Below are positions 4,984 to 62,198 of a stretch of DNA of 64,000 bases, in pieces (within the stretch, counting starts at the first letter, position 1; every line of letters starts with the position of its first letter). The DNA lies in NCBI GenBank assembly GCA_002422025.1, contig DISV01000004.1, positions 102,578 through 166,577 of the forward strand. Reading direction: 5' to 3'. The position numbers and the translations under genes are program-made. The stretch is from Patescibacteria group bacterium UBA6201. Lineage in GTDB: Bacteria; Patescibacteriota; Minisyncoccia; Phycocordibacterales; UBA918. The notes under the pieces were generated by a model. The model was not told the DNA's origin. It saw only the letters and a program-made list of their open reading frames with translations, and ran no database searches.

Positions 4984-5162
4984 ACGTGAGAATGAGATTC
5001 AGCCCAGCAATCATAAAATTAACAAACAGTTCAAGTAACTGTAGCAAGAAGTTGAGAAATGATTTGATGATGGTAATAGCACTGTCCATAAACAGATTTT
5101 ATCATACACACCTTGAGACAATATTGTGTATTAGGGAAATCAGATGCCTCACCTAGCACATA

Positions 5163-5528
5163 GAAAACCGCCTAATGGCGGCTTTTCTATTGCGCGAGCG
5201 AAGGGACTTGGTCACGAATATTTTCCTGCGTAAAATTTCTCGACCCCACCTCGCTTGCCTACGGCATCGCTCCGGCCTTCAAGCCCCTACACAAGCAAAG
5301 CAGTTTGCTTGTTTCGTTCGCGCAAACAAAAAAACGGCATGAAGCCGTATTTTGTTTGCGCGAGCGAAGGGACTTGAAACTTACAGTTTCGGTACACCTT
5401 TTGGCTGTTTCTGTTCACAAGCTCCAGAAATATCTCAAAAGGTCTTCAAGTCCCTACACAAAAGTCTCCCAGATTTTTGTTTCGCTCGCACAAAGTAAAA
5501 GCCCCCTAGTGGGGACTTTTATACTTTG
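5163..5528 (-). repeat. Three tandem modules (hairpin plus 20-24 nt copy of the tRNA-Asp 3' end) downstream of tRNA-Asp
   Basis: gcgcgagcgaagggacttg occurs at 5193-5211 and 5359-5377 and again as the genuine tRNA 3' end at 5528-5546; each copy is preceded by a GC hairpin; there are also inverted degenerate acceptor copies (cgttcgcgcaaac). Confidence 0.6.
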
Positions 5529-14790: not shown

Positions 14791-15210
14791 CTAAGAAGCT
14801 GGACAAGCAGTTCCAGCGCCGAGTGCGCTTGTAACTATTCGAGCGACACCAGTACTATCAACACAATAATATTGTGCAGTGTTAGACATTAGTTGAGCGG
14901 ACATGGCCCAAACCAACGGAGTATCGTTACAATCAACAACTGCACTGCCAGAGGTACCAGCTGCTACTTTCATAGTAGTGATGCCGGTAGTTGCGGTGCA
15001 TACACCGTCGTAAGAACGACTATTGTCGTCATAGTAAAGTTCAGCTTGAGCCCGAGAATTGTTAAGGTTTGATTTGATAGCAGCATCTGCTCCCTTATCA
15101 CGAGCGCTATTAAGTGATGCCAACACCACTGAGGCCAAGATACCGATGATGGCAATGACCACGAGGAGCTCGATGAGGGTAAAGCCGCGGCTAGATGTTT
15201 GTTTAATCAT
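14791..15210 (-). CDS. pilA: Type IVa major pilin paralogue 1
   Basis: Leader MIKQTSSRG|FTLIELLVVIAIIGILASVV; first about 120 nt of the mature region are identical to the next gene. Confidence 0.8.
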   Translation of the reverse strand: MIKQTSSRGFTLIELLVVIAIIGILASVVLASLNSARDKGADAAIKSNLNNSRAQAELYYDDNSRSYDGVCTATTGITTMKVAAGTSGSAVVDCNDTPLVWAMSAQLMSNTAQYYCVDSTGVARIVTSALGAGTACPAS

Positions 15211-15347
15211 AAAATGTAAAATAATTTTCCTTACGTTCATTTTACACCCTACACTGTGAAACATTTGAATGTGTGTGAATAACTAGGAACAAAAAAACAG
15301 CAAGCAATCAAGCTCACTGTTTTTTCCTAAACTAAACTCCTAACTAG

Positions 15348-15743
15348 TTAAGGACAAGTTGTAGCTCCTGTAGTAACTGACGCTGTAGCGGTAGTAGTAG
15401 CGGTTCCAGTTGAGTCTACACAGTATGTGGAAGTAGTAGCGCTCGAGAGAGAAGCAAAAGCTGCCCATACGTCTGCCGTATCATTACATTCACCACCAGC
15501 TGCGCTTACACCTTGTGCAACGTTAGAATCAGCACAAACATTTAAATAACTACCGTTATCATCGTAAAACAATTCAGCTTGCGCACGAATGTTATTAAGG
15601 TTGGACTTGATAGCGGCGTCCTCTCCCTTGTCGCGAGCGCTATTAAGTGATGCCAACACCACTGAGGCCAAGATACCGATGATGGCAATGACCACGAGGA
15701 GCTCGATGAGGGTGAAACCTCTTTTAAGTGTGTTCTTAATCAT
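15348..15743 (-). CDS. pilA: Type IVa major pilin paralogue 2
   Basis: Leader MIKNTLKRG|FTLIELLVVIAIIGILASVVLASLNSARDKG; Thr/Ala-rich variable C-terminus. Confidence 0.85.
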   Translation of the reverse strand: MIKNTLKRGFTLIELLVVIAIIGILASVVLASLNSARDKGEDAAIKSNLNNIRAQAELFYDDNGSYLNVCADSNVAQGVSAAGGECNDTADVWAAFASLSSATTSTYCVDSTGTATTTATASVTTGATTCP

Positions 15744-15949
15744 ATAACTAATTACTTTATAACTTACCTGCTCCAGACATCAGCTGCGTGTCTTGAACAG
15801 GACATCCGTTTAATGGATACTATCAATTCTATAGTTATTCTTGGCCACTTAGATAAATGAGTGTGGATAAGACCAGTTTTTTAATCAAGATACTTTTGAT
15901 TGGGGCCTAATTTTTTAGACTTAAAAAATTAGGTGGAGCTATGTTTAAC

Positions 15950-16081
15950 TTAAGTTATCTAACAGAGGATTTTTGGATGCAGTTATGCCAGCTGGAGGGA
16001 GTTTCGTGCGGAAGACGTATACGGACATACGACGACCAAACGAAGCGACTGAAGCTGGTGTAAATGCACCAAAAATACCTG
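15950..16081. repeat. Intergenic dispersed repeat (Q family)
   Basis: ggatgcagtt...gctggagggag...gtatacggacatacgacgaccaaacgaagcgactgaagc matches copies at 59885-60017 and 62078-62198. Confidence 0.5.
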
Positions 16082-17290: not shown

Positions 17291-17577
17291 AGATATAGTT
17301 TAAAGTTAAAAGCTGAAAGTTGAAAGGCGTGGAGCTGTGTTTAACTTTGCCGTATCCTAACCGAAGATTTTTAGACGCAGTTGCACCAGTGCGAGGTAGT
17401 TTAGGGAGGAAGACGTGAGGTGTGGATACATTTAACAATTTGGATTGTTAAACTTTTTAAATTGGAGGAAATTCGACGGTTTGCAGGAGTTTTTGTGACC
17501 AAGGCGTAGATTGACCTACGGTGCGGGAGCAAAAACTTCGAAAACCTAGGATTTACCCAATTTTGGAAGTTTAGGAT
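17291..17577. repeat. Composite dispersed repeat (Q plus R modules) filling the pilC-pilT spacer
   Basis: gtgaccaaggcgtagattgacctacggtgcggg...cctaggatttaccc is near-identical to 54120-54215 and 51100-51160. Confidence 0.55.
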
Positions 17578-29052: not shown

Positions 29053-29140
29053 ACATCCACAGTATAGAGCATGTGTAATACTCTGTCTCCGCGAACAAAA
29101 CAGAATCACCCAACACTTGTGTGTTGGGCTGATTGTTTTG

Positions 29141-29227
29141 CGGAGGATGTGAGATTCGAACTCACGGGCAGTTTTACCCGCCGGCGGTTTAGTAAACCGC
29201 TGGTTTAAACCACTCACCCAATCCTCC
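29141..29227 (-). tRNA. Type II (long variable arm) Ser-like tRNA with apparent anticodon ACU
   Basis: Acceptor GGAGGAT/ATCCTCC, 3-bp D-stem GGT/ACC, anticodon arm GCGGT-TTACTAA-ACCGC, variable stem GGCGG/CTGCC, T-arm GTGAG-TTCGAAT-CTCAC. Confidence 0.5.
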
Positions 29228-29299: not shown

Positions 29300-29481
29300 C
29301 ACGGGGACGGAAGGAGGGATTCAGTCACGAATAATTTTGTAATACAAAATTTTCTCGACCCCAGCTCGCTGGCCTGCGGCATCGCTCCGCTTTTCGAATC
29401 CCTCCGTAAAGCAAAGCAGTTTACTTTACTCCTTTTCCGCCCAATAAAATAACCACCCTAGTGGGTGGTATTTTATACGGG
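29300..29481 (-). repeat. tRNA-associated repeat also present at the tRNA-Asp locus, plus partial and inverted copies of the tRNA-Ser 3' end
   Basis: aaaattttctcgaccccagctcgctggcctgcggcatcgctccg matches 5234-5277 with 3 mismatches; gacggaaggagggattc is a copy of the tRNA 3' end. Confidence 0.55.
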
Positions 29482-29568
29482 CGGAAAAGGAGGGATTCGA
29501 ACCCTCGAGGGTTTTGACACCCTACCTCCTTAGCAAGGAGGCACATTCGACCACTCTGACACTTTTCC
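29482..29568 (-). tRNA. tRNA-Ser (anticodon GCU), type II
   Basis: Acceptor GGAAAAG/CTTTTCC, anticodon arm CCTCC-TTGCTAA-GGAGG, long variable arm, T-arm GAGGG-TTCGAAT-CCCTC. Confidence 0.7.
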
Positions 29569-29690
29569 AATGTGCAGTACATATTGCCCTATTTAAGGCA
29601 TCTTTTCAAATGTTTATATAACTTCTGCATCTTTTCAAAGTTTCACTTATATGCGATGCTTGAATTAGCGAAAGGGAGGAGGTGTACAAA

Positions 29691-34792: not shown

Positions 34793-34866
34793 CCGCCCTT
34801 AGCTCAGTTGGTTAGAGCACAGAGCTTATACCTCTGGGGTCCTTGGTTCGAGTCCAAGAGGGCGGA
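34793..34866 (+). tRNA. tRNA-Ile (anticodon UAU)
   Basis: Acceptor CCGCCCT/AGGGCGG, D-arm TAGCTCAGTTGGTTAGAGC, anticodon arm CAGAG-CTTATAC-CTCTG, T-arm CTTGG-TTCGAGT-CCAAG. Confidence 0.7.
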
Positions 34867-34892
34867 CGGAATTTTTAATTTTCTTATACCTG

Positions 34893-35627: not shown

Positions 35628-37646
35628 CTAGACCTCCTTCCCCTTCATATGATCCGCATCGAATTCAATAGCGCTCGTTGGGTCACCTAGTCTTTCTTCT
35701 TCAAGACGCTGGTCGCGATAGAAATCCTTTATCTCCACACCTTCAGCTTTAAGAATTGCCTCATATTCCTCGCGCTCCAAAGTCTCTACCTCCAACAAAC
35801 GCATAGAAATAGCATCAAGTGCCTTGCGATTCTGAGACAATATCTCCTTAGCTGTTTCCATTCCTGTTGAGATAAGCTTTGACACCTCCTCATCAATTGA
35901 TTTTGCTACGTCTGGTGAATATCCACGATCCTCACCCACCCCACCACCAATCAAGCGTCCTCCAGAGCCTTCAAAGGCCACAGCACCGAGCTTATCACTC
36001 ATACCATACTTAGTGACCATATCGCGTGCGAGATTTGCTACAACCTGCAAGTCGTTAGACGGACCAGTGGTTAGATCGTCAAAAATCATCACCTCAGCTA
36101 CATAACCACCTAATGTCATTGCGATGTCATCAATAAACTCTTTGCGGGAATGCATCTTACGGTCTTGGTCAGGCAACTTCAAAGTATATCCGGCTGCACG
36201 ACCACGGGAGATGATAGATATCTTCTGTACCGGATCAGCATAAGGCAAGACCGAAGCAACCAACGCATGTCCAGCTTCATGATACGCAGTTACTTCTCTT
36301 TCTTTCTTCGAGAGCAAGTGGCTCTTGCGTTCTGGTCCAAGCATTACTTTTTCGATCGAACGAATAATGTCAAACTGTGACACTGTCTTACGCTCCTCGC
36401 GAGCCGCCAAGATAGCCGCTTCGTTCATCAGTGACTGCAAGTCAGCTCCAGAGAAACCTGGAGTACGAGTAGCGATAGTTGCAAGGTTCACATCTTCCGC
36501 CAATGGCTTCTTGCGTGCATGCACATTGAGAATCGCTTCACGATCGTCACGATCAGGTAGATCGATGGTTACACGTCTATCGAAGCGTCCAGGACGCACA
36601 AGCGCTGGGTCAAGTACATCTGGGCGGTTAGTAGCTGCCATCACAATCACCTTTTCGGTTGGCTCGAAGCCATCCATCTCTACCAGTATCTGGTTCAAGG
36701 TCTGTTCACGTTCATCATTTCCCCCACCAATACCAGTACCGCGGATGCGACCTACAGCATCAATTTCATCTACGAAGATGATTGCTGGAGCGGCCTTCTT
36801 CGCCATTTGGAATAGGTCCCGCACACGACTGGCTCCAACACCAACAAACATCTCTACAAACTCTGAACCAGAGATGGAAAAGAAAGGTACACCGGCCTCA
36901 CCAGCAACAGCCCGTGCCAATAGCGTCTTACCTGTTCCTGCCGGACCCATCAAGAGTACGCCTTTCGGAATTTCTGCACCGATATCCAAAAACTTTTTCG
37001 GATTCTTCAAGAAGTCCACTATCTCTTCTAACTCCTGCTTAGCTTCTTTGGCACCCGCCACATCTTTGAAAGTTACTTTTTGTGACTGATCATTAGGATC
37101 AATTACCCTTGCTTTGGACATTCCAAAATTCAGTGCCTGCATTCCAGCACCACGCATTGAACGGGTGAAGAACCAGATAATCAAGAGGAGAAAAATTATC
37201 GGGAAAATAAACGGAGCGAAGGTGGAAAGATAGTATGAGAAACCAGTCTCTTTCTGCACATCAATAGTCACACCGGCTATTTGTTCTGAAGTTACACCGA
37301 GATTAGCGAGCGTTTCCGTGATAGATGCATCAACTTCTTTCTTCCCTTCGGCCTTTGCCCTGGAGTCATCTTTATATGAAACCTCAAGTTTTGAACCGCG
37401 CACCACAATCTCACTAACCTCACCAGCCTTAACCCCTTCAGCAATGGCTGAGAGCGAAGCCTCTACTGGTTCTTCCTGACGTTCAGCAATATATGAATAT
37501 CCAGCCACAATCAGCATCAAAACTAAAATCGTCGACAGCATATTGTTCCAAAAATTGCCTGGACCAACTGGCATCTTCTTCATTAACATGGATGAACGAT
37601 TCCGCTTCTCTCCTTCTTTTTTATTCTTTATTTTTTTATCACTCAT
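35628..37646 (-). CDS. ftsH: ATP-dependent zinc metalloprotease FtsH
   Basis: Walker [12 protein letters not shown], zinc site HEAGHAL, N-terminal TMs. Confidence 0.9.
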
Positions 37647-37708: not shown

Positions 37709-38155
37709 GTGACTGACCTAATAAGAAACAAAAAAGCTGGGTTTAATTTTGAACTCCTCGAGCGCTATGAAGCGGGCGTGGAACTTTTAGGTATCGAAGT
37801 AAAATCTCTACGAAAAGGTCAAGGCAAACTCGAAGGCTCACACGTTATAGTTCGTGGTGACGAAGCTTATTTAGTCGGTGCCTCCATACCGGCTTTTCAA
37901 AAGGCCAACGCCCCAAAGGACTATGACCCGGAGCGAGTTCGTAGATTATTGTTGAAAAAAAAGGAGATTTTGGAGTTGTTCACAGAGAGTGAAAAGCGTG
38001 GTTTGACAATCGTGCCAATTCGGTGGTATAATAAAAACCGTTTAGTAAAGCTCGAAATCGCTATCGCTAAAGGTAAGAAAAACTATGACAAGCGCGAGAC
38101 CATTAAAGGTCGCGATACCAAACGCGAAATTGAGCGAACATTGAAAAACCAATAA
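37709..38155 (+). CDS. smpB: SsrA-binding protein SmpB
   Basis: 148 aa, typical SmpB sequence; tmRNA gene downstream. Confidence 0.9.
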   Translation: MTDLIRNKKAGFNFELLERYEAGVELLGIEVKSLRKGQGKLEGSHVIVRGDEAYLVGASIPAFQKANAPKDYDPERVRRLLLKKKEILELFTESEKRGLTIVPIRWYNKNRLVKLEIAIAKGKKNYDKRETIKGRDTKREIERTLKNQ

Positions 38156-38578: not shown

Positions 38579-38955
38579 GGGGATGACAGGCATCGACGGT
38601 TTGAATCGTTCATCCACGCAATGCCGAAATTGGAATCAATTCGTTAAAAGGTTCCATCTGTATCTGCAAACAAAGCAATACCAAGTCCGTTCTCATACGG
38701 ATTCGCCTTCGCTCGAGCGTAAGTTCGCGTAGGTGACGCTAACCTGCCCCACGTCTAATAAGGTTGTGTTAGTGGAATAGCATTGGACTCTAGATAATTG
38801 ATTTGTTCCATTAATTATCCAAATTGTTAGGAACTGCTCGTGTTGAGATTTTGCCAAATTTTTCACTTACCACGCTAAGATTTAAATCTGGCTATGCATT
38901 GTAGAAGTGTATGGACGACCATTCTCGGACGTGGATTCAATTTCCACCATCTCCA
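38579..38955 (+). ncRNA. ssrA: tmRNA (ssrA), standard one-piece
   Basis: 5' GGGGATGACAGGCATCGACGG (acceptor strand plus conserved GGC-ATCGACGG), 3' T-arm GTGGA-TTCAATT-TCCAC, acceptor CATCTCC, discriminator A; internal tag ORF starting GCAAAC and ending ...FAFARA-TAA; adjacent to smpB. Confidence 0.75.
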
Positions 38956-39159
38956 CGAGTACAAAAATCCGCTCGCACGAAAGTGCGGGCGATTTTTGTT
39001 CGTGGAGATGGTGAGAAAGCAAACTGTTTTGCTTTCGTGAAATTGAATCGGGCGGAGCGTTGTGTTTTTGCTCTTACTTAGGCAAAAACACCGCGAGCCG
39101 GGCCTGCAAGCACTTAGTATTTTAAGTGCGGAGCACGAATAAATACTTAGTGACTTGAT

Positions 39160-39184
39160 GGTTCAATTTCCACCATCTCCACCA
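39160..39184 (+). repeat. Near-perfect direct copy of the tmRNA 3' end (attachment-site-like), 205 bp downstream of ssrA
   Basis: ggttcaatttccaccatctccacca versus the tmRNA ggattcaatttccaccatctccac. Confidence 0.7.
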
Positions 39185-39323
39185 ATTCTGAAGCAAAACG
39201 AGCCTTATAAAATAAGGCTCGTTTTGTTGTATTTTGGAGAGATGTTTGGAAATTAGAACCTCTGTTTACAAACTATTATTTTTATAATATTGTTCGACTA
39301 GCTACACAGCTTGGAGACTTGAG

Positions 39324-39872
39324 ATGAAAACCATCTATGTAAGTCCTCGCAACGTGCAGATAACCACGGTAGATGGATGCCAGATGTCCGTCAAACTGGT
39401 ACTGGTACGCGAGGCGGGTGGTTTTATCAGTCTTCAAGACTGGAAACCACCTTCTGAACTGGATGATGTAGAAATTGTGCTGGTGAAGAGGCCCTGCTTC
39501 AAGCGATTACGACTACCACACGATGTAAAGCAAGCGATACTGCATTTCCTGCAACGCTACCACGCAAAACAGGACATATCGTTTGATTGCTACGCATTCG
39601 CCAACTTGGTCAAAGGGGTAAAAGTTCACAAAGTTCCTTTCATGCTCAAATACTGGAACAAGCGACCCAAACCCTGGTTTATTCCAGTTGGTTCAGTTGT
39701 ATTCTTCGAGAGCGGTGAGAACCGCTTCCACCATACAGCTGTCTACATCGGGTATGGACTGTACATTTCAGTCTGGGGTGCTGGTGGCGACCTCGAAGTT
39801 GCAACACTCAAATCAATGAAACGCGACTACGGCGCTGAACGAGTGATGTTCGCTGAACCAGTCGCTACTTGA
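39324..39872 (+). CDS. Island cargo 1: NlpC/P60-like (Cys-His papain-fold) putative hydrolase
   Basis: FDCYAF...VGSVVFFESGENRFHHTAVYIGYG follows the C..H..H spacing of NlpC/P60; GC-rich; own promoter-like module and intrinsic terminator (39869-39905). Confidence 0.45.
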   Translation: MKTIYVSPRNVQITTVDGCQMSVKLVLVREAGGFISLQDWKPPSELDDVEIVLVKRPCFKRLRLPHDVKQAILHFLQRYHAKQDISFDCYAFANLVKGVKVHKVPFMLKYWNKRPKPWFIPVGSVVFFESGENRFHHTAVYIGYGLYISVWGAGGDLEVATLKSMKRDYGAERVMFAEPVAT

Positions 39873-39904
39873 CCGCCTTCCCTTCGGGGTGGGCGGTTTC
39901 TTTT

Positions 39905-39992
39905 TCACCAGAAATCAACAATCTTCAAGAAACTCGGACACTCCATTTCAATCAAAGAGGTTTTAACTTGTAGTAAACTGCTCCACAGAATC
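39905..39992 (+). repeat. Cassette-junction module M1 (degenerate tmRNA 3' end copy)
   Basis: cttcaagaaactcggacactccatttcaatcaaagaggttttaacttgtagtaaactgctccacagaat; about 98% identical to 40813-40897; ctcggac...tttcaat...ctccacagaat echoes the tmRNA ctcggacgtggattcaattt...ctccaccaatt. Confidence 0.6.
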
Positions 39993-40133
39993 TGAAGCAA
40001 AAAGAGCCTTATATAATAAGGCTCTTTTTGTGCAATTTTTGACAGATGTATGGAAACTAGAACCTCTATTTACAGACTACTGTTTTCATTATATTGTTTC
40101 AATAGCTCTTTCAACTAAAACACGAGGTGAAAC

Positions 40134-40739
40134 ATGAGAGAAGTTTCTCTTACGCTCGACTATCTGACCATCGAACAGCTAATCGACCTTATCGACGAGC
40201 CGCATCGTTCGGTCTGCCAGCGCATTCTTGCGGACAACCGCAAACTCTTCGAAACAGCACGCGGTTCAACCCATAACCATCAGACATGGGACGGGGGTTA
40301 CATCGACCATGTCACTGACGGCATGAACTACGTGCGCCACCTCTACACGTTCGATGAGGCCTTCGGTCGACCTTTGCCATTCTCGATGTCAGATGCCCTG
40401 CTGGTCTTCTTCTTGCACGACCTCGAAAAACCTTGGCGTATCCTGGTCGATGAATCGGGGCAAGCATCAAACCGCGAGGGACTCGACACCAAAGCAACCT
40501 ACAAGGCATTTCGTGAAGAAAAGCTGGCATCGTACGGCCTCGAACTGAGCGACATGCAGTTCAACGGCTTCACGTACGTCGAAGGCGAACTTCATGACTA
40601 CACCAGCAAGCGGCGCGTCATGAACGAGCTGGCAGCTTTCGCCCACAAAGTCGACAACTGGTGCGCTCGTGGATGGTATGACTACCCCAAAGCCACTGAT
40701 GACGAGTGGACGGGCGCTGGTCGGATACGCACCACGTAA
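40134..40739 (+). CDS. Island cargo 2: HD-domain metal-dependent phosphohydrolase
   Basis: STHNHQTWDGGYIDH plus FFLHDLEKP (H..HD..D); about 55% GC versus about 44% surroundings; own promoter module and terminator. Confidence 0.6.
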   Translation: MREVSLTLDYLTIEQLIDLIDEPHRSVCQRILADNRKLFETARGSTHNHQTWDGGYIDHVTDGMNYVRHLYTFDEAFGRPLPFSMSDALLVFFLHDLEKPWRILVDESGQASNREGLDTKATYKAFREEKLASYGLELSDMQFNGFTYVEGELHDYTSKRRVMNELAAFAHKVDNWCARGWYDYPKATDDEWTGAGRIRTT

Positions 40740-40812
40740 CATCGTTACAACAACCACTGAATCTTGAATTGAAAGTCACCCTTTCGTTTCAACGATTGGG
40801 TGGTTTTCTTTT

Positions 40813-40897
40813 TCCCACAAATCCACTACCTTCAAGAAACTCGGACACTCCATTTCAATTAAAGAGGTTTTAACTTGTAGTAAACTGCTCCACAGAA
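40813..40897 (+). repeat. Cassette-junction module M2
   Basis: Near-identical to M1. Confidence 0.6.
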
Positions 40898-41000
40898 TAT
40901 AGAAATATATGGAAGATTAAGAGAGCTTACTCAGGTCTGAGTAAGCTTTCTTATTTTGTATAAAACCAGACATCCATAGTCCTCTACTGTTTTACACAGA

Positions 41001-41361
41001 TTATTTCTTCACACAGTGCAACATAAGGTCATTACCGTCAGGATCAGTGAAAAGCGCCATGTAACAGACAGGATTATCAAGAGTCTCGCCACTAAACACA
41101 ACCCCCCTTATCCTCTAATTCTTTACGTGCTGCTTCTATCTCATCGACATGAAGTGCAATATGAGCGTTCTTCTGTGGCGCGAACGACATGCCCATCTTC
41201 TCTGGTTCCCAGATACCAAAACAGGTGTCCCCTACCCAAAATTCATACTCTGCTTTTGGATCTGGTCTAAGACCTAAGGTGTCTATATAAAACTTCCGCG
41301 ACCGCTCTGAGTCAGTTGACGGCACTCCCACAAAATCAAGTTTAGTGATTTTATTTTCCAT
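41001..41361 (-). pseudogene. Island cargo 3: glyoxalase/VOC-family gene interrupted by a frameshift in a G6/C6 homopolymer
   Basis: N-terminal LDFVGVPSTDSERSRKFY...KGG (41092-41361) continues in another frame as VFSGETLDNPVCYMALFTDPDGNDLMLHCVKK* (41001-41100); the shift lies at cccccc, 41103-41108. Confidence 0.55.
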
Positions 41362-41404
41362 AGTTAAAATTTTAGTGGTTAATTATTTATTAATTGTACT
41401 ACAA

Positions 41405-41448
41405 ATTCACCACCCTCAAGAAATTCTGACACTCCATTTCAATCAAAC
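41405..41448 (+). repeat. Partial junction module M3
   Basis: caccaccctcaagaaattctgacactccatttcaatcaaa. Confidence 0.45.
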
Positions 41449-41635
41449 TAATCCTAACCAAGGACAAACTACTCCACCGATTCAAAACACCACTCTATCG
41501 AGTAGCATTTTGCTACCTATATATAGAAATTAGTTTGAATACCATGTACAAAATAGTATTTTCATTATATTGTTTGCCTCAGTTTTGAGGCTATTGCGCC
41601 AACAAGTACACCAACCCGCACCTTTACAGGAGGCC

Positions 41636-42436
41636 AAAATGGCTTTTAAGATTCGATTGTTCACACAGAAAGACCTCGATCGCATCGAAGCATATCATCG
41701 GGGAGAAATACAAAAACCCCAATGGATAATCGACTGGGAAAAGAAGATTGAAGATGCACGGCTGATACTCGCTGCTGCCGTTCATCAAGAGCTTCTGGAC
41801 CCCCATCAACAAACGCTGTACGTTCAGACTGTCGCTCAGATGATGCATCGGCGAGACCGCCTCTACGACATCTGGATGGAAGAGCTACCTTTTAAGACAT
41901 GGGAAGAACTCGCGAACGAACGTCCACCGTCTTCAGACGATCTGTTTCAATACACAGTTAAGGACACAGAAGACTACCTCAACGGCCCTGGAGTCTCAGC
42001 ATTTGTATGCTTCTTGGACCAACGGTGGAAGGGGTTCCTCAAGGACTTCGCCCATCAATGTCTTCGGGACTGCGACCCACTGATCGAAGAGTCATTCCTT
42101 ATGACTCCAGAAATTCGTCACACACTCTCCTACCCAGAACAAACCTTCGGTACTAGTAATAAGGAAATTCTTGAAGCTCGTCTGATTGAATGGACTAACA
42201 AGAAAATTCACACTGATACACCCTCATACGTCGTGCGGCTACTCGTTGCTAATGTATGGATAGCACTGGACAAAGAAATGAGTGCGCTGACGCAGATGGA
42301 GTTCGCTCGATGTGAAGCTGCGGAACCCAATTTCGAGCGAATGATGAAAGAAAAGGACCCGGCAACCGACCTCTATCTGACACAAGCGCAACGATGGCAG
42401 ATAGAAGTTCTTCTCAAAATGTGGCCAAGTTCATGA
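41636..42436 (+). CDS. Island cargo 4: hypothetical 266-aa protein
   Basis: SD acaGGAGGccaaaATG; stem-loop terminator at 42440-42480; no recognisable domain. Confidence 0.5.
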   Translation, partial: KMAFKIRLFTQKDLDRIEAYHRGEIQKPQWIIDWEKKIEDARLILAAAVHQELLDPHQQTLYVQTVAQMMHRRDRLYDIWMEELPFKTWEELANERPPSSDDLFQYTVKDTEDYLNGPGVSAFVCFLDQRWKGFLKDFAHQCLRDCDPLIEESFLMTPEIRHTLSYPEQTFGTSNKEILEARLIEWTNKKIHTDTPSYVVRLLVANVWIALDKEMSALTQMEFARCEAAEPNFERMMKEKDPATDLYLTQAQRWQIEVLLKMWPSS

Positions 42437-42625
42437 CCCGGCCACCTCGCCGCCTTCCCTCTGGGGGAGGCGGTTTCTTTTATATAGATCAGTTCGTTAA
42501 GTTGTCGCAAATCAACAAACTGATGATTCATATTAGTTTTTAACCACTCCTCTCTATGTTGGTTTAGTATACGGTGAGGTCTAAAGTTAGCTACTTTATT
42601 CATTCAGTTGTTCACAGTGGTATTT

Positions 42626-42654
42626 GACAAAAACACTAACTGGTCACATAATAA
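42626..42654 (+). promoter_or_regulatory. Consensus sigma70-type promoter TTGACA-N17-CATAAT
   Basis: ttgacaaaaacactaactggtcacataat. Confidence 0.4.
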
Positions 42655-42687
42655 ACACAGTTGGGAGGAAACCGGGGAGGAAGTACT

Positions 42688-42792
42688 ATGGAGTCAACAT
42701 GGGCATTGCCGGCAGCGATTTTTTTTGGATATGTCTGCCTGACCATCACTTGCAGTTACTGGTGGACACATTCTGGTCCATCTGACCCACAT
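42688..42792 (+). CDS. Hypothetical 34-aa hydrophobic peptide
   Basis: MESTWALPAAIFFGYVCLTITCSYWWTHSGPSDPH; SD gggaggaag; terminator at 42821-42850; below the ORF-track length cut-off. Confidence 0.3.
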
Positions 42793-42876
42793 TGAAAGTG
42801 GGTCAATCGAAGAATACAGGGTCCGGCGCATCTGCTCCGGACCTTTTGTTATGATATATTCTTAGTATCTTACGGT

Positions 42877-45331: not shown

Positions 45332-45505
45332 TCTCCAAAACCAGCGAATTTGTACCGGTTTCGGTCGCTTCACTTGGTCGTCGTAGGTTTACTACGTCTT
45401 CCGCTTGAAGCTCCCTCCAACCGGCACAACTTCATCCGGTTTTGAAAACTAGCAATAATTATCGCTAGTACTAGAAACTTTAAACTGAAAACTAACAACT
45501 AATTT

Positions 45506-45850: not shown

Positions 45851-46034
45851 AGTTTCCAAAATCAGGTAAATTCTAGGACTTCAGAAATTTTGCTCGTCGC
45901 CGTATGTTGAATACGGCTCGCTCTCAAAACTTCCTCCAGTCCGTCGAATTTCCACTAATTTTGAAAGATTTAACGAAACCCCGCGCCTAGGCGCGGGGTT
46001 TTTGCTTATTTGTTATTTCTAGTAGGACTGACAC

Positions 46035-50934: not shown

Positions 50935-51156
50935 CCTGTGAAATTGGATGCAGTTGTATTGGTACTCCGAAGTCAAAACTTCGAAAATTGGAGGAAATCC
51001 GACGGGTTGGAGGAATTTTGGCGACAGAGCGACCAAGAAAATAAGGAGTGTGCAACACGACTATATTTTCTGAAGTACTCCCTGTAGTGCCTTAGACCAA
51101 CTAAGGTGACCGAGACAAAATTCCGAAACCCTAGGATTTACCCGATTTTGGGAGTT
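50935..51156. repeat. Composite dispersed repeat (Q plus R) between the NMP kinase gene and secY
   Basis: gaaattggatgcagttg...ggaggaaatccgacgggttggagga...ccctaggatttacccgatttt. Confidence 0.55.
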
Positions 51157-52425
51157 TTAGTATTCGCGCATGGAGACTTGCGCATCAACTCGGCGCAACA
51201 GATCCAACACCACTGACACCACAATCAAGAGCGCAGTACCACCAATAGCGAGAGCTGCAATACCGGTCACCATTTTCATACCAAGTGGTAAGACTGCCAC
51301 TAGACCAAGAAATAGTGCTCCTACTAAGGTGAGACGAGTAATCAGTCCTCCTAGGTATTCAGCAGTCGCTGCACCTGGACGGAGTCCAGGTACGAATGCT
51401 CCACTGCGCTGTAGGTTCTTCGATACAGCATCTGGATCAAAGGTTACAGCTGTGTAGAAGAAAGCAAACATGATAACCAACACGAAGTAGACTAGCGCGT
51501 AAGCAAGCTGATTATTAAAGAAGACTAAAAGTAATTCAGATGCTCTGGCTACTCCGGCAATATTAAAGCTCGAAAGGACGTTAAGAAGCATTTGTGGAAA
51601 GAGCAATATCGACATAGCAAAGATAATTGGTATGACGCCTGCCTGATTGAGACGCAGTGGCAAGTATGAAGATGTGCCACCGTAGGTCGTACCACCTCGG
51701 CTCTGTTTTGCGTAAGTAATTGGTACTGGACGCTCCGCCTCAGTCATCACCACCACCGCATAGATAGTAGCGAGCGCAATCAGACCAAAACCAAGGTAAA
51801 GTGGTAATTGTGCTGGAGTATACCCGAAAGCGAGTTGACTCGCTGTGGCAGGAAGTCCTGCAACGATACCAGCGAAAATGAGGATTGAAACACCATTACC
51901 GATACCGTACTCTGTGACTAATTCACCAATCCACATAAGAAGGACAGAACCAGCAACAATTAAGACAACGTTAGTCAAGAAAGCAAAAGTAGACAATCCA
52001 CTAATCACTCCCTGACTCTGAAGTAGAGTCAGGAAACCATAACCTTGCAGGACACCGAGTGGCAAAGTGAGCAGACGTGCATACTGAGTAAAACGAGCTC
52101 GTCCCGCCTCCCCTTCTTCGGTGTGCATGCTCTTCAGTTTTGGTGACATCACAGTCAACAACTGCATAATGATTGAAGCAGTAATGAAAGGTCCAACACC
52201 GAGCATGATGATGGACAAGTTTGCCAGACCACCACCAGAGAAGATGTTAAGGAGTCCCAAGAATTGATTGTTCGCGAAAAATTGCTGCAATACTACCGCG
52301 TCGACTCCTGGAATAGGAATGGTCGACAGGGCTCTGAATATAAATAGTGCACCGAGTACGAATAGTAGACGGTTACGGATACCTTCATCGGTGAACGCTA
52401 TTTTCAGTTTATGTAGGAATTTATT
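51157..52425 (-). CDS. secY: Preprotein translocase SecY
   Basis: 10 TM segments; start taken at MNKFLHKLKIAF. Confidence 0.9.
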   Translation of the reverse strand, partial: NKFLHKLKIAFTDEGIRNRLLFVLGALFIFRALSTIPIPGVDAVVLQQFFANNQFLGLLNIFSGGGLANLSIIMLGVGPFITASIIMQLLTVMSPKLKSMHTEEGEAGRARFTQYARLLTLPLGVLQGYGFLTLLQSQGVISGLSTFAFLTNVVLIVAGSVLLMWIGELVTEYGIGNGVSILIFAGIVAGLPATASQLAFGYTPAQLPLYLGFGLIALATIYAVVVMTEAERPVPITYAKQSRGGTTYGGTSSYLPLRLNQAGVIPIIFAMSILLFPQMLLNVLSSFNIAGVARASELLLVFFNNQLAYALVYFVLVIMFAFFYTAVTFDPDAVSKNLQRSGAFVPGLRPGAATAEYLGGLITRLTLVGALFLGLVAVLPLGMKMVTGIAALAIGGTALLIVVSVVLDLLRRVDAQVSMREY

Positions 52426-54099: not shown

Positions 54100-54226
54100 T
54101 ATTTAAACTTAGGAAATTGGATGAAATCCGACGGGCTGGAGAAGATTTTGTGACCAAGGCGTAGATAGACCTACGACGCGGAAACAAAATCTTTGAAGCC
54201 CTAGGATTTCGCCGATTTCATATTGT
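54100..54226. repeat. Dispersed repeat (R module) between rplF and rplR
   Basis: ggaaattggatgaaatccgacgggctggagaagattttgtgaccaaggcgtagatagacctacgacgcgg...ccctaggatttcgcc. Confidence 0.55.
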
Positions 54227-54760
54227 TTAAACGGCTTTCTTACCTTGCTTACGAATAATATATTCACCCTGATAGCGAATACCCTTGCCCTTATAAGGCT
54301 CTGGCTTTTTCACCTTGCGCACGTCAGCCGCAAATTGACCAACGATCTCCTTATCGACTCCTGTTACTGTTACAACACCCTTCTCTACCACTACAGTGAC
54401 TCCTTCTGGAATCACCATCTCCACTGGGTGCGAGAAACCCATAAGAAGTACGAGTGTGTTTCCTTTAACTTCAGCACGATAGCCAACTCCTTCAATTTCC
54501 AATATTTTTTTGAATCCGTCAGTAACTCCGGTCACCATGTTTCGAGCATGCGCTGCGTAAGTACCCCAAAGGGCACGAGCCGCAATACTACCTTCCTTTG
54601 GAGAGAAGGTGATAGTGTTTCCTTCCATCTTAAGTTCAACATCATCCTTAATCGGACGTGACAAAGAAGTGTTTCCCTTTTTCACAGTCAAGATACCACC
54701 TTCAAAAGTAGCTTCGACGCCAACAGGCAATATTACTGGTTGTTTTCCTAAACGACTCAT
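54227..54760 (-). CDS. rplF: 50S ribosomal protein uL6
   Basis: MSRLGKQPVILP... start. Confidence 0.9.
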   Translation of the reverse strand: MSRLGKQPVILPVGVEATFEGGILTVKKGNTSLSRPIKDDVELKMEGNTITFSPKEGSIAARALWGTYAAHARNMVTGVTDGFKKILEIEGVGYRAEVKGNTLVLLMGFSHPVEMVIPEGVTVVVEKGVVTVTGVDKEIVGQFAADVRKVKKPEPYKGKGIRYQGEYIIRKQGKKAV

Positions 54761-62051: not shown

Positions 62052-62077
62052 ATTTTTATACTTAATTTAAGTTTTAA

Positions 62078-62198
62078 AAATTGGATGCAGTTGTGTTTGT
62101 TGGAAGAATTTTTATGAGGAAGGTGTAGTAAACCTACGACGACCGAGTAAAAATTCTGAAACGAATGCAAATGCGCCAATTTATTTAACTTAAAAAGA
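62078..62198. repeat. Dispersed repeat (Q family) between rplC and rplD
   Basis: aaaaattggatgcagttgtg...gtgtagtaaacctacgacgaccgagtaaaaattctgaaacgaatgcaaatgcgcc. Confidence 0.55.

Follow-up and report, generated by a model that had tools for sequence, protein, structure and literature searches.

A probable accretion of miniature, integrase-less inserted elements at the 3' end of the tmRNA gene of a Patescibacteria bacterium

The region downstream of the tmRNA gene (ssrA) was analyzed in a 64,000-nucleotide stretch of DNA from the Patescibacteria group bacterium UBA6201 (assembly GCA_002422025.1, contig DISV01000004.1, positions 102,578 to 166,577), hereafter the window, in whose coordinates all positions are given. 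The segment from 38957 to about 42480 is read here, with somewhat more confidence than doubt, as a series of miniature elements that have accumulated by insertion at the ssrA 3' end; they carry no integrase, and their insertion would be catalyzed in trans. The first of them is a 226-bp insertion named SDE, and it is followed by short single-gene cassettes. SDE is an insertion, the units have definable boundaries and recur in other genomes, and there is no recombinase gene in the locality.

The tmRNA gene (38579-38956/8, plus strand) was scored as complete by both ARAGORN and Rfam (RF00023, 96 bits); it encodes the tag peptide ANKAIPSPFSYGFAFARA, has the T-arm GTGGA-TTCAATT-TCCAC and ends in ...CATCTCCA-C, the CCA not being encoded. 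An exact 21-nt direct repeat, TTCAATTTCCACCATCTCCAC, was found at 38936-38956 and 39162-39182 (chance expectation about 0.01), starting with TTCAATT, which is the T-loop, and covering the 3' half of the T-stem, the acceptor 3' strand, the discriminator and one C. Copy 1 (plus strand) lies within the functional gene, from the T-loop to the first base past the discriminator, and is followed by CGAG, with no CCA, while copy 2 is followed by CA, so that a CCA is encoded there (39162-39184, plus strand). The near-perfect downstream copy with CCA that had been described in the first-pass annotation, an earlier reading of the same DNA, proved to be exact over these 21 nt.

Neighborhoods of ssrA were retrieved by means of the SmpB proteins from seven further sister genomes (five distinct lineages) and from a more distant genome, L001. 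In L091, L093, L095 and L099-101 the gene ends in ...CATCTCCACCA and continues directly with AATCTGAAGCAAAACGAGCC..., the sequence that is found from 39183 onward in the window; this uninterrupted flank (AATCTGAAGCAAAACGAGCCTTAT..ATAAGGCTCGTTTTG..GGAGAGATGTT) is 92% identical to window positions 39183-39250. Since ssrA runs straight into the sequence after copy 2 in these sister genomes, copy 2 with its CCA and the hairpin at 39192-39228 correspond to the displaced native gene end and its terminator, and the 226 bp in between (38957-39182) constitute the insertion SDE. Copies 1 and 2 thus behave as attL and attR of this insertion, as supported by the sister sequences. The native downstream flank, designated flank A (39183-39261, plus strand), contains the terminator T2 (39192-39228) and GGAGAGATGTTTGGAA, forms the left part of the repeat D2 described below, and is 92% identical to L091, L093 and L095, 93% to L001 and 96.5% to L084 and L085. 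The first-pass annotation had pointed to the ssrA flanks of sister genomes as a check on its proposal of integration, and these bore it out, with uninterrupted sites in the genomes mentioned and variable genes as far as the 5'-nucleotidase gene NT5C. PMC4383910 gives a repeat reaching from the T-loop to the 3' end as the standard signature of elements integrated in tRNA-type genes (tDNA), and the ssrA islands of Dehalococcoides show a 20-bp repeat and insertion at the T-loop (PMC3146451).

The SDE body (38957-39161) is a 205-bp non-coding insert, which makes 226 bp together with copy 2. Its first feature is T1, an intrinsic-terminator hairpin (38962-38998; stem 38970-38991 plus T tail) that is bidirectional in form, preceded by an A-tract and trailed by a T-tract. 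Next comes the inverted copy of the tmRNA 3' end, in two parts: antisense part 1 (cgtggagatggtg, 39001-39013), complementary to the acceptor 3' strand, the T-stem 3' half and the flank base past CTCCAC, and antisense part 2 (gtgaaattgaatc, 39037-39049), complementary to the T-loop and the start of the T-stem 3' half. The two parts are split by H1, a 9-bp hairpin of 23 nt (39014-39036; RNAalifold columns 94-115). The folded hairpin H2 (GTGTTTTTGC/GCAAAAACAC, 39057-39094) and the long A+T-rich hairpin H3 (39106-39157) complete the body, and ACTTGATGG then adjoins copy 2; all of these features are given for the plus strand. Folds were very stable, with z = -13.2 for the window SDE and a further value of z = -12.9. 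The earlier description of this 205-bp segment as consisting of hairpins only, with an inverted copy at 39001-39013, was upheld, the segment being non-coding and the inverted copy longer than noted, as it extends to 39037-39049.

No promoter-like site was found inside SDE, and no open reading frame (ORF) in its body is conserved in L001 or L096, the two other genomes with the arrangement. A 56-amino-acid ORF (38911-39081, P0241) that overlaps the tmRNA 3' end and SDE is called as a protein in NCBI, ENA and Logan; a search of 5.8 billion proteins gave no homolog for it, neither L001 nor L096 conserves it and, judged by these comparisons, it is an annotation artefact, a spurious 'protein' in public databases. 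A coding nature of SDE was rejected on the same grounds. In Rfam 15, which includes the group I introns of tmRNA and tRNA genes, only the tmRNA and tRNAs reached the gathering score, SDE and the junction repeats being unmatched, and a permissive scan (E up to 10) gave weak hairpin look-alikes only, so that a group I intron, a ribozyme, a small RNA and a permuted tmRNA were all rejected as identities of SDE. A phage or viral origin was also rejected, since the phage collection yielded FtsH-like hits only; three IMG/VR scans with SDE, flank-A and D1 patterns (D1 being the junction repeat of the cassettes) gave no hits.

The SDE arrangement was found again in L001 (SmpB 66% and tmRNA body 64% identical to the window) and in L096 (SmpB 90%, tmRNA body 92%), with bodies of 197 and 201 nt, respectively. 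All three share the same order of tmRNA end, short spacer, T1, antisense 1, H1, antisense 2, H2, H3 and second direct copy, and H1 interrupts the inverted copy at the identical position. Hairpins H1-H3 differ in sequence between the genomes but are maintained through compensatory changes: in L096 both sides of H1 are changed in five of the nine pairs, and H2, located at the same position in each genome, reads GTTCATGGC/GCCGTGAAC in L001 and GTCTGTCACCA/TGGTGACAGAC in L096. Over the three SDEs, RNAalifold detected double-sided changes in 30 of 84 consensus pairs, and it paired antisense part 1 with the gene end (columns 24-37 with 79-92), including the covarying pair 36:80 (G:C, C:G, A:U), which represents the base right after CTCCAC. 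The antisense matches the functional tmRNA end of each genome (TCCAC with GTGAA in the window, ACCCC with GTGGT in L096); its part 2 tracks the T-loop and T-stem sequence of the host in all three, an A/G difference in the T-loop being mirrored in the L001 antisense. Copy 2 of L096 has a different T-loop and stem (TTCAGACTCCGCC) and so differs from the antisense, which places the antisense with copy 1, the gene end supplied by the element. The plus strand was 5-11 kcal/mol more stable than the minus strand in the three SDEs.

These very stable folds, the compensatory changes, the tracking of the tmRNA end up to the first nucleotide past CTCCAC and the more stable plus strand also speak for another explanation, which we consider unlikely, namely that SDE is primarily a functional RNA and not mobile DNA. 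It would be either a 3' extension of ssrA whose antisense pairs with the T-arm and acceptor 3' strand of pre-tmRNA, affecting 3' processing, CCA addition or the amount of active tmRNA, or a separate non-coding RNA of about 185 nt closed by a helix between the antisense and copy 2. However, the strong intrinsic terminator T1 separates the gene from the antisense, copy 2 is followed by a further terminator, and no promoter-like site was found in SDE; the pairing would unfold the tRNA-like domain of tmRNA, and no Rfam family was matched. SDE is also dispensable, being absent in most close relatives with 92-94% identical tmRNA; it is flanked by a direct repeat and its phylogeny is at odds with that of the host, and the same covariation would be expected if the structure were conserved as folded DNA. 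On the side of a functional RNA, Cohnella has tmRNA, terminator and inverted copy in a similar order.

The Cohnella locus was recorded as a look-alike. In the Firmicute Cohnella nanjingensis DSM 28246 (L074, 2690-3120) the tmRNA end is followed by a terminator and a partial inverted copy (GTGGGCGAGGGG), with two internal repeats of about 120 nt; a second direct copy (CCCTCGCCTCCACCA) lies 293 nt downstream, and then come a terminator and an inverted copy once more. An SDE-like design may therefore not be limited to the candidate phyla radiation (CPR), to which Patescibacteria belong.

Apart from this look-alike, a direct plus an inverted copy occurred only in the three lineages among 47 tmRNA loci. 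SDE was absent from L090 (SmpB 92%), L091, L093, L095, L098, L099-101 and L102; a scan of the genome collection recovered a single true relative with the structure, L001, and a metagenome scan two short contigs. The similarities among the SDEs disagree with host relatedness: the inserts of the window and L001 are 67.5% identical, compared with 64% for the tmRNA bodies, whereas those of the window and L096 are 57.8% identical, compared with 92% for the bodies. By this disagreement SDE looks mobile.

The T-arms of the tmRNA genes form a mosaic. The tmRNA bodies of L090, L091, L093, L096, L098 and L099 are 92-94% identical, and that of L102 is 86% identical; tag peptides were identical wherever ARAGORN was run (L090, L091-L093, L095). 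Among these seven loci there are four T-stem sequences (GTGGA/TCCAC, GGGAG/CTCCC, GGGGT/ACCCC and CCGAG/CTCGG, the stems of relatives with 92-94% bodies) and five 3' flanks, and T-arm identity among close relatives is only 50-72%, as opposed to 92-94% for the body. The window and L001 agree at 17 of 18 T-arm positions. Every sister 3' flank diverges directly after CATCTCCAC, and an encoded CCA is missing in most. This pattern indicates that the gene end has probably been replaced repeatedly, SDE moving horizontally along with it.

Downstream of flank A, the junctions between the cassettes are marked by two repeats. D1 is present as 102-nt copies at 39890-39991, 40797-40898 (90%) and 41381-41482 (63%), and D2, of 127 nt, at 39177-39303 and 39981-40107 (83%); the repeat alignments had z = 18-46, the flank duplication z = 42, and neither repeat has further copies elsewhere in the window, where scattered copies at non-junction positions would have spoken against the first-pass annotation. 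Cassette 1 (39262-39986, plus strand) consists of a promoter-like site (39265-39293), the gene g1 (39324-39872, with a weak NlpC/P60 match), a terminator (39873-39900) and D1, which ends with CTCCAC at 39981-39986. It is followed by flank A' (39987-40066, plus strand), a diverged second copy of the ssrA flank with a terminator hairpin (39997-40031), 83% identical within D2 and 80-83% identical to native flanks elsewhere. Cassette 2 (40067-40893, plus strand) has the same composition, with a promoter-like site (40069-40097), g2 (40134-40739), a terminator and a D1 ending with CTCCAC at 40888-40893. Cassette 3 (40894-41477) starts with a left end of another type, type B (AGAATATAGAAATATATGGAAGATTAA, 40894-40920), and a hairpin (40918-40953), carries a glyoxalase-family gene on the minus strand (41092-41361) and closes with the 63% D1, whose CTCCAC is at 41472-41477. 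In the fourth unit (41478-42474, plus strand) a degenerate stretch resembling flank A, the promoter motif TTTCATTATATTGTT at 41560, g4 (41639-42436, no domain) and a terminator (42449-42474) were found; this terminator is 80% like that of g1, and no D1 follows g4.

The first-pass annotation had placed progressively degenerate copies of the tmRNA 3' end at these junctions, within its segments M1 and M2. The repeats themselves are real, but their descent from the tmRNA gene did not hold: local alignment of the D1 copies with the last 63 nt of the gene was no better than that of dinucleotide shuffles (p = 0.18, 0.13 and 0.59), the very outcome that had been named beforehand as counting against the proposal. 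The tmRNA-like 7-mer CTCGGAC is peculiar to two of the window copies, other genomes having TTCTGAC, TTAGCAC or TTAGGAC, and D1 as a decayed tmRNA 3' end was rejected. Seven D1 copies from four genomes have 37 invariant columns, with the consensus CACCACAAATC.AC.ATCTTCAAGAAATT...ACACTCCATTTCAATCAAA.AGGTT.TAAC.......AAACTA.TCCAC; the blocks conserved in distant genomes are exactly the parts that do not resemble tmRNA, and the conserved element of about 85 nt stops at (C/T)(C/T)CCA(C/G). A relationship of D1 to SDE, on either strand, was not significant and was also rejected.

D1 was found only in arrays of this kind and has one orientation, whatever the orientation of the gene. The only homology of the junctions to ssrA is the last 6 nt, CTCCAC, with the left part of D2 that follows, that is, the ssrA end plus its native flank (about 80 nt). 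At the first junction, J1, AGAATCTGAAGC...terminator...GACAGATGTATGGAAACTAGAACCTC comes after D1 and reproduces the native flank at 80-83% identity, whereas the flank copy next to ssrA (J0) is 92-96% identical to the native flanks of other genomes; this better preservation fits an order in which the newest unit is the nearest to ssrA. Junctions J1 and J2 are equally alike, J3 is weaker (z = 17.9) and J4 (42482-42876) shows no likeness (z = 0.6) and was rejected as a further junction, so that the gradient with distance proposed earlier was retained for the junction modules and dropped for similarity to tmRNA.

Comparable arrays are present in other genomes. In L096, copy 2 of SDE is followed by a type-B left end, reversed HTH and DUF2975 genes, D1 and a promoter-like motif (TTTACA...TATGATATTGT), and in L001 flank A precedes a different gene, a terminator and D1. 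The JGI contigs L084 and L085 have flank A behind a NUDIX-like ORF, identified by eye from the translation, then a further unrelated gene and the start of D1. The product of g2 belongs to a 201-amino-acid family that has no Pfam domain and is unusually well conserved in CPR, 615 homologs at 70-91% identity being spread over its classes. L104-L106 contain this unit in full, from the promoter-like site through g2 and the terminator to D1, with 82-83% identity over 828 nt to window positions 40067-40892; the protein is 91% identical, yet the core proteins next to the unit reach only 50% and 56% identity to their counterparts in the window organism. There the unit lies at a non-ssrA site, between SpoU and SAM-methyltransferase genes that are adjacent in the window organism, and the similarity to the window breaks off precisely where D1 ends. 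This comparison shows that the g2 cassette has moved horizontally, and since D1 moved with g2 to a non-ssrA site it represents the right boundary of a transferable unit and not a scar of ssrA. More distant relatives of g2 were noted in Variovorax megaplasmids (65%) and in a 635-kb uncultured huge phage (44%).

The sister genomes share the gene order malic enzyme, RecG, FtsH, SmpB, ssrA ... NT5C, SET, infC, and the genes between ssrA and NT5C are different in every sister lineage, with PspC-PadR, DUF4386, pyridine-nucleotide oxidoreductase and DUF305 genes among the examples. The comparison supports the ssrA 3' end as a hotspot of insertion and replacement. Such variability could also arise with no site-specific mechanism at all, at a hotspot of the 'minimal mobile element' type, where transformed DNA is swapped by homologous recombination between the anchors ssrA, flank A, D1 and NT5C; the duplicated flank and the 21-nt repeat would then come from unequal or Campbell-type events, and D1 and D2 would be regulatory sequences (3' untranslated region, terminator, promoter) shared within a gene family. 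We regard this as improbable, on a par with the functional RNA. The duplicated flank of about 80 nt is long enough for RecA, no recombinase gene lies in the 64 kb and a type IV pilus/competence-like gene block does, but an exact 21-nt repeat starting at the T-loop is a signature of site-specific integration. Relatives differ over the whole T-arm with its 5' half, which exchange of a segment through flanking homology would produce, and sister genomes lack second ssrA repeats; yet the window and L001 share SDE and T-arm with tmRNA bodies of 64% identity, too divergent for efficient exchange. As for regulatory sequences, D2 includes a promoter-like site and every gene has terminators on its flanks, whereas the orientation of D1 is independent of the gene and D1 coincides with the precise end of the transferred g2 unit at an unrelated locus, unlike a gene-expression signal.

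Under the preferred interpretation, an accretion of inserted elements, SDE would have recombined within the segment from the T-loop to the 3' end (the 21-nt block), supplying the present gene 3' end with its own terminator and pushing the native end (copy 2, CCA and terminator) 226 bp downstream; the expected empty site would be ...GTGGATTCAATTTCCACCATCTCCAC|CAATTCTGAAGC and the expected circle junction ...ACTTGATGGTTCAATTTCCACCATCTCCAC|GAGTACAAAAATCC. Three to four single-gene cassettes, each with its own promoter-like site and terminator and the first three ending in D1, would then have been added as circles recombining with the chromosomal CTCCAC and the flank of about 80 nt, each insertion duplicating the flank. 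The circular intermediates, the crossover site and chemistry and the order of events we infer from the arrangement of the repeats. Integrase, serine recombinase, transposase and Xer-like domains were found neither in the 64 kb, which gave no Phage_integrase hit, nor next to the L001 array, and the cassette genes encode no recombinase domain. With no recombinase gene within 64 kb, catalysis would have to be in trans, whether through a recombinase whose gene lies elsewhere or on a visiting element or through RecA acting on the 80-nt homology.

Several observations weigh against this interpretation, the lack of an integrase or recombinase domain in the window and beside the L001 array among them. 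No excision or circle junction was observed, and SDE was sampled only three times among the loci examined. The duplicated flank, at 80 nt, is longer than a site-specific recombinase needs, and homologous (Campbell-type) integration fits it equally well. D1 has no hairpin on either strand (z from -1.3 to +1.1 versus shuffles) and no recognizable internal symmetry, and an attC-like hairpin was accordingly rejected for it. The sister genomes with other genes after ssrA have no second ssrA repeat within 5-8 kb, so that not all of the variability is demonstrably site-specific. Finally, relatives differ in their T-stem 5' halves although the repeat does not begin before the T-loop, and in L096 copy 2 matches neither the T-stem nor the antisense of that genome; the simple model of a T-loop crossover is thus incomplete.

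Two independent Logan assemblies from the same strain (L082, SRR5323255; L083, SRR943318) are 100% identical to the window and both end at 39983, inside the D1/D2 junction. These ends were rejected as evidence of excision, as the 31-mers shared by the D1 copies explain the breaks; the repeat array at ssrA fragments short-read assemblies.

Islands integrated in tRNA-type genes (Islander/TIGER; 'traffic at the tmRNA gene') are alike in that the element regenerates its target, the displaced 3' fragment remains as a distal direct repeat extending from the T-loop to the gene end, and elements accrete in tandem at one gene. The locus shows a complete gene with a displaced fragment repeat, and relatives with an uninterrupted site; it does not show an integrase gene inside the element. 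Those islands measure several kb or more, whereas the units described here measure 0.2-0.9 kb, with no integrase in or near them; the first unit is wholly non-coding, and the distal junctions consist of 6 nt of the gene and a copy of the downstream flank. The first-pass annotation had proposed repeated integration at the tmRNA 3' end as a classic case; the hotspot, the attL/attR geometry and the newest-nearest flank agree with it, while the classic integrase-bearing island does not, given the size of the units and the lack of an integrase. In the ssrA islands of Dehalococcoides (McMurdie et al. 2011, PMC3146451), tandem units likewise lie downstream of a single-copy ssrA, some of them with no integration genes, and a T-loop-starting repeat of about 20 bp is common to both systems. 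Those islands are multi-gene and many have a conserved integration module (the serine recombinase DsiB beside attL), but no module of the DsiB/CcrB type was found in the window; the word 'inverted' does not occur in the text of PMC3146451, which describes no inverted ssrA copy.

By analogy, the closest named category for an integrase-less element that keeps attL and attR is the cis-mobilizable element (CIME), which has no integration or transfer genes, as here, and occurs in tandem with other elements at the 3' end of tRNA-type genes. CIMEs are by definition decay products of integrative and conjugative or integrative and mobilizable elements, whereas the constant size and covarying architecture of SDE in three genomes point to a maintained unit. 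We find it hardly credible that decay of a once larger island with an integrase left SDE behind as a strict CIME, that the cassettes are leftovers of further islands and that nothing is mobile or functional now. Retention of attL and attR with no integration genes is what defines a CIME (PMC5704250), and the distal junctions have decayed (J3 63%, J4 none), but random deletion would not yield the same 197-205-nt size and the ordered terminator, split antisense and three hairpins with compensatory changes in three genomes, and the g2 cassette, 82-83% identical across genomes with 50-56% core proteins, indicates recent transfer. No full-length relative was found.

For the cassettes the closest functional analogy would be the integron array, with mostly single-gene units of unrelated functions in either orientation, each ending in a conserved site-like element, at one fixed chromosomal site with the best-preserved unit nearest; a cassette content that varies between relatives is also seen here. 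Unlike integrons, the 64 kb contain neither IntI nor attI, D1 lacks the imperfect palindrome of attC and does not fold, the cassettes carry their own promoter-like sites and terminators, and the anchor is the ssrA end. A literature search found no tmRNA-anchored cassette arrays or integrons in CPR. Folded single-strand attachment sites are known from integron attC and from the attP of CTX-phi, which is used by XerCD. In a similar manner the inverted target copy of SDE could fold into a duplex imitating the tmRNA-gene end, with bulged or terminal hairpins and with structure kept more than sequence; its 25-bp stem has a hairpin breaking it up, phages are ten to a hundred times larger than this element, no site of the Xer type was recognized, and recombination of SDE as single-stranded DNA is putative. 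The inverted copy could serve an att site as a folded or cruciform structure, or could act as an RNA trailer pairing with pre-tmRNA; our preferred guess is that both this copy and D1 represent an element-borne recombination-site architecture, with an att site that is folded or bound by protein.

The window is cellular DNA of a small-genome CPR bacterium, and the contig k141_604931 of the ENA assembly ERZ27315056 contains the identical sequence. In the GTDB species set the nearest genome is the 'Candidatus Paceibacteria' metagenome-assembled genome L001 (SmpB 66%), and closer relatives (SmpB 84-92%) are found in metagenome assemblies, one of them labelled Candidatus Nomurabacteria. On one side the locus is bordered by FtsH (35628-37646, minus strand), SmpB (37709-38155) and ssrA, and on the other by NT5C, a SET-domain gene, infC and rplT; the remainder of the window holds type IV pilus genes, tRNAs and a ribosomal-protein operon. 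Dispersed intergenic repeats of 50-120 nt (AAACTT..AAATTGGAGGAAATyCGACGG..TTGGAGGA..GTGACCAAGGCGTA), unrelated to the ssrA repeats, lie between core genes in the pilus, r-protein and rplT regions (15973-16019, 17371-17417, 17448-17572, 50976-51157, 54103-54227 and 62058-62176; inverted at 45344-45462 and 45912-45970). A 203-nt direct repeat (82%; 15012-15214 and 15545-15747) in a block of prepilin-type (N_methyl) genes probably reflects paralogous pilin N-termini. Unusual anticodons were noted (29140-29227, 29479-29569 and 34793-34867), with tRNA-Ser(ACT) beside tRNA-Ser(GCT), a pair also present in L004, and tRNA-Ile(TAT), also present in L001, L003, L004 and L011. Short repeats (55-57 nt, 71-82%; 5156-5376 and 5232-5288/29347-29403) were also seen beside the tRNA-Asp/Met cluster and the tRNA-Ser pair, possibly elements common to the flanks of tRNA genes.

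That mobile DNA integrates at tRNA and tmRNA genes is textbook knowledge, the known cases being kilobase-sized islands with their own integrase. The same signature comes here from units of 0.2-0.9 kb with no local enzyme, in bacteria with genomes of about 1 Mb and few recognized mobile elements. The sister comparison demonstrates an exchange of the tmRNA T-arm among close relatives, and the covarying inverted copy of the tmRNA end behind a terminator is a testable oddity that touches tmRNA maturation. More tentatively, and with less confidence than in the accretion itself, the ssrA 3' end may anchor a previously undescribed gene-capture platform of CPR/Patescibacteria, made up of promoter-bearing cassettes marked by the non-palindromic D1 of about 85 nt and of the autonomous-looking, structured SDE of about 200 nt with its folded imitation of the tmRNA T-arm and acceptor, the recombinase being located elsewhere; in that case SDE would represent a new kind of miniature integrative element whose att site is a folded nucleic acid, or would also regulate tmRNA maturation. 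Should the units prove truly mobile, SDE and D1 would provide two new searchable and testable recombination-site-like sequences, and reduced genomes would have a route by which to trade single accessory genes.

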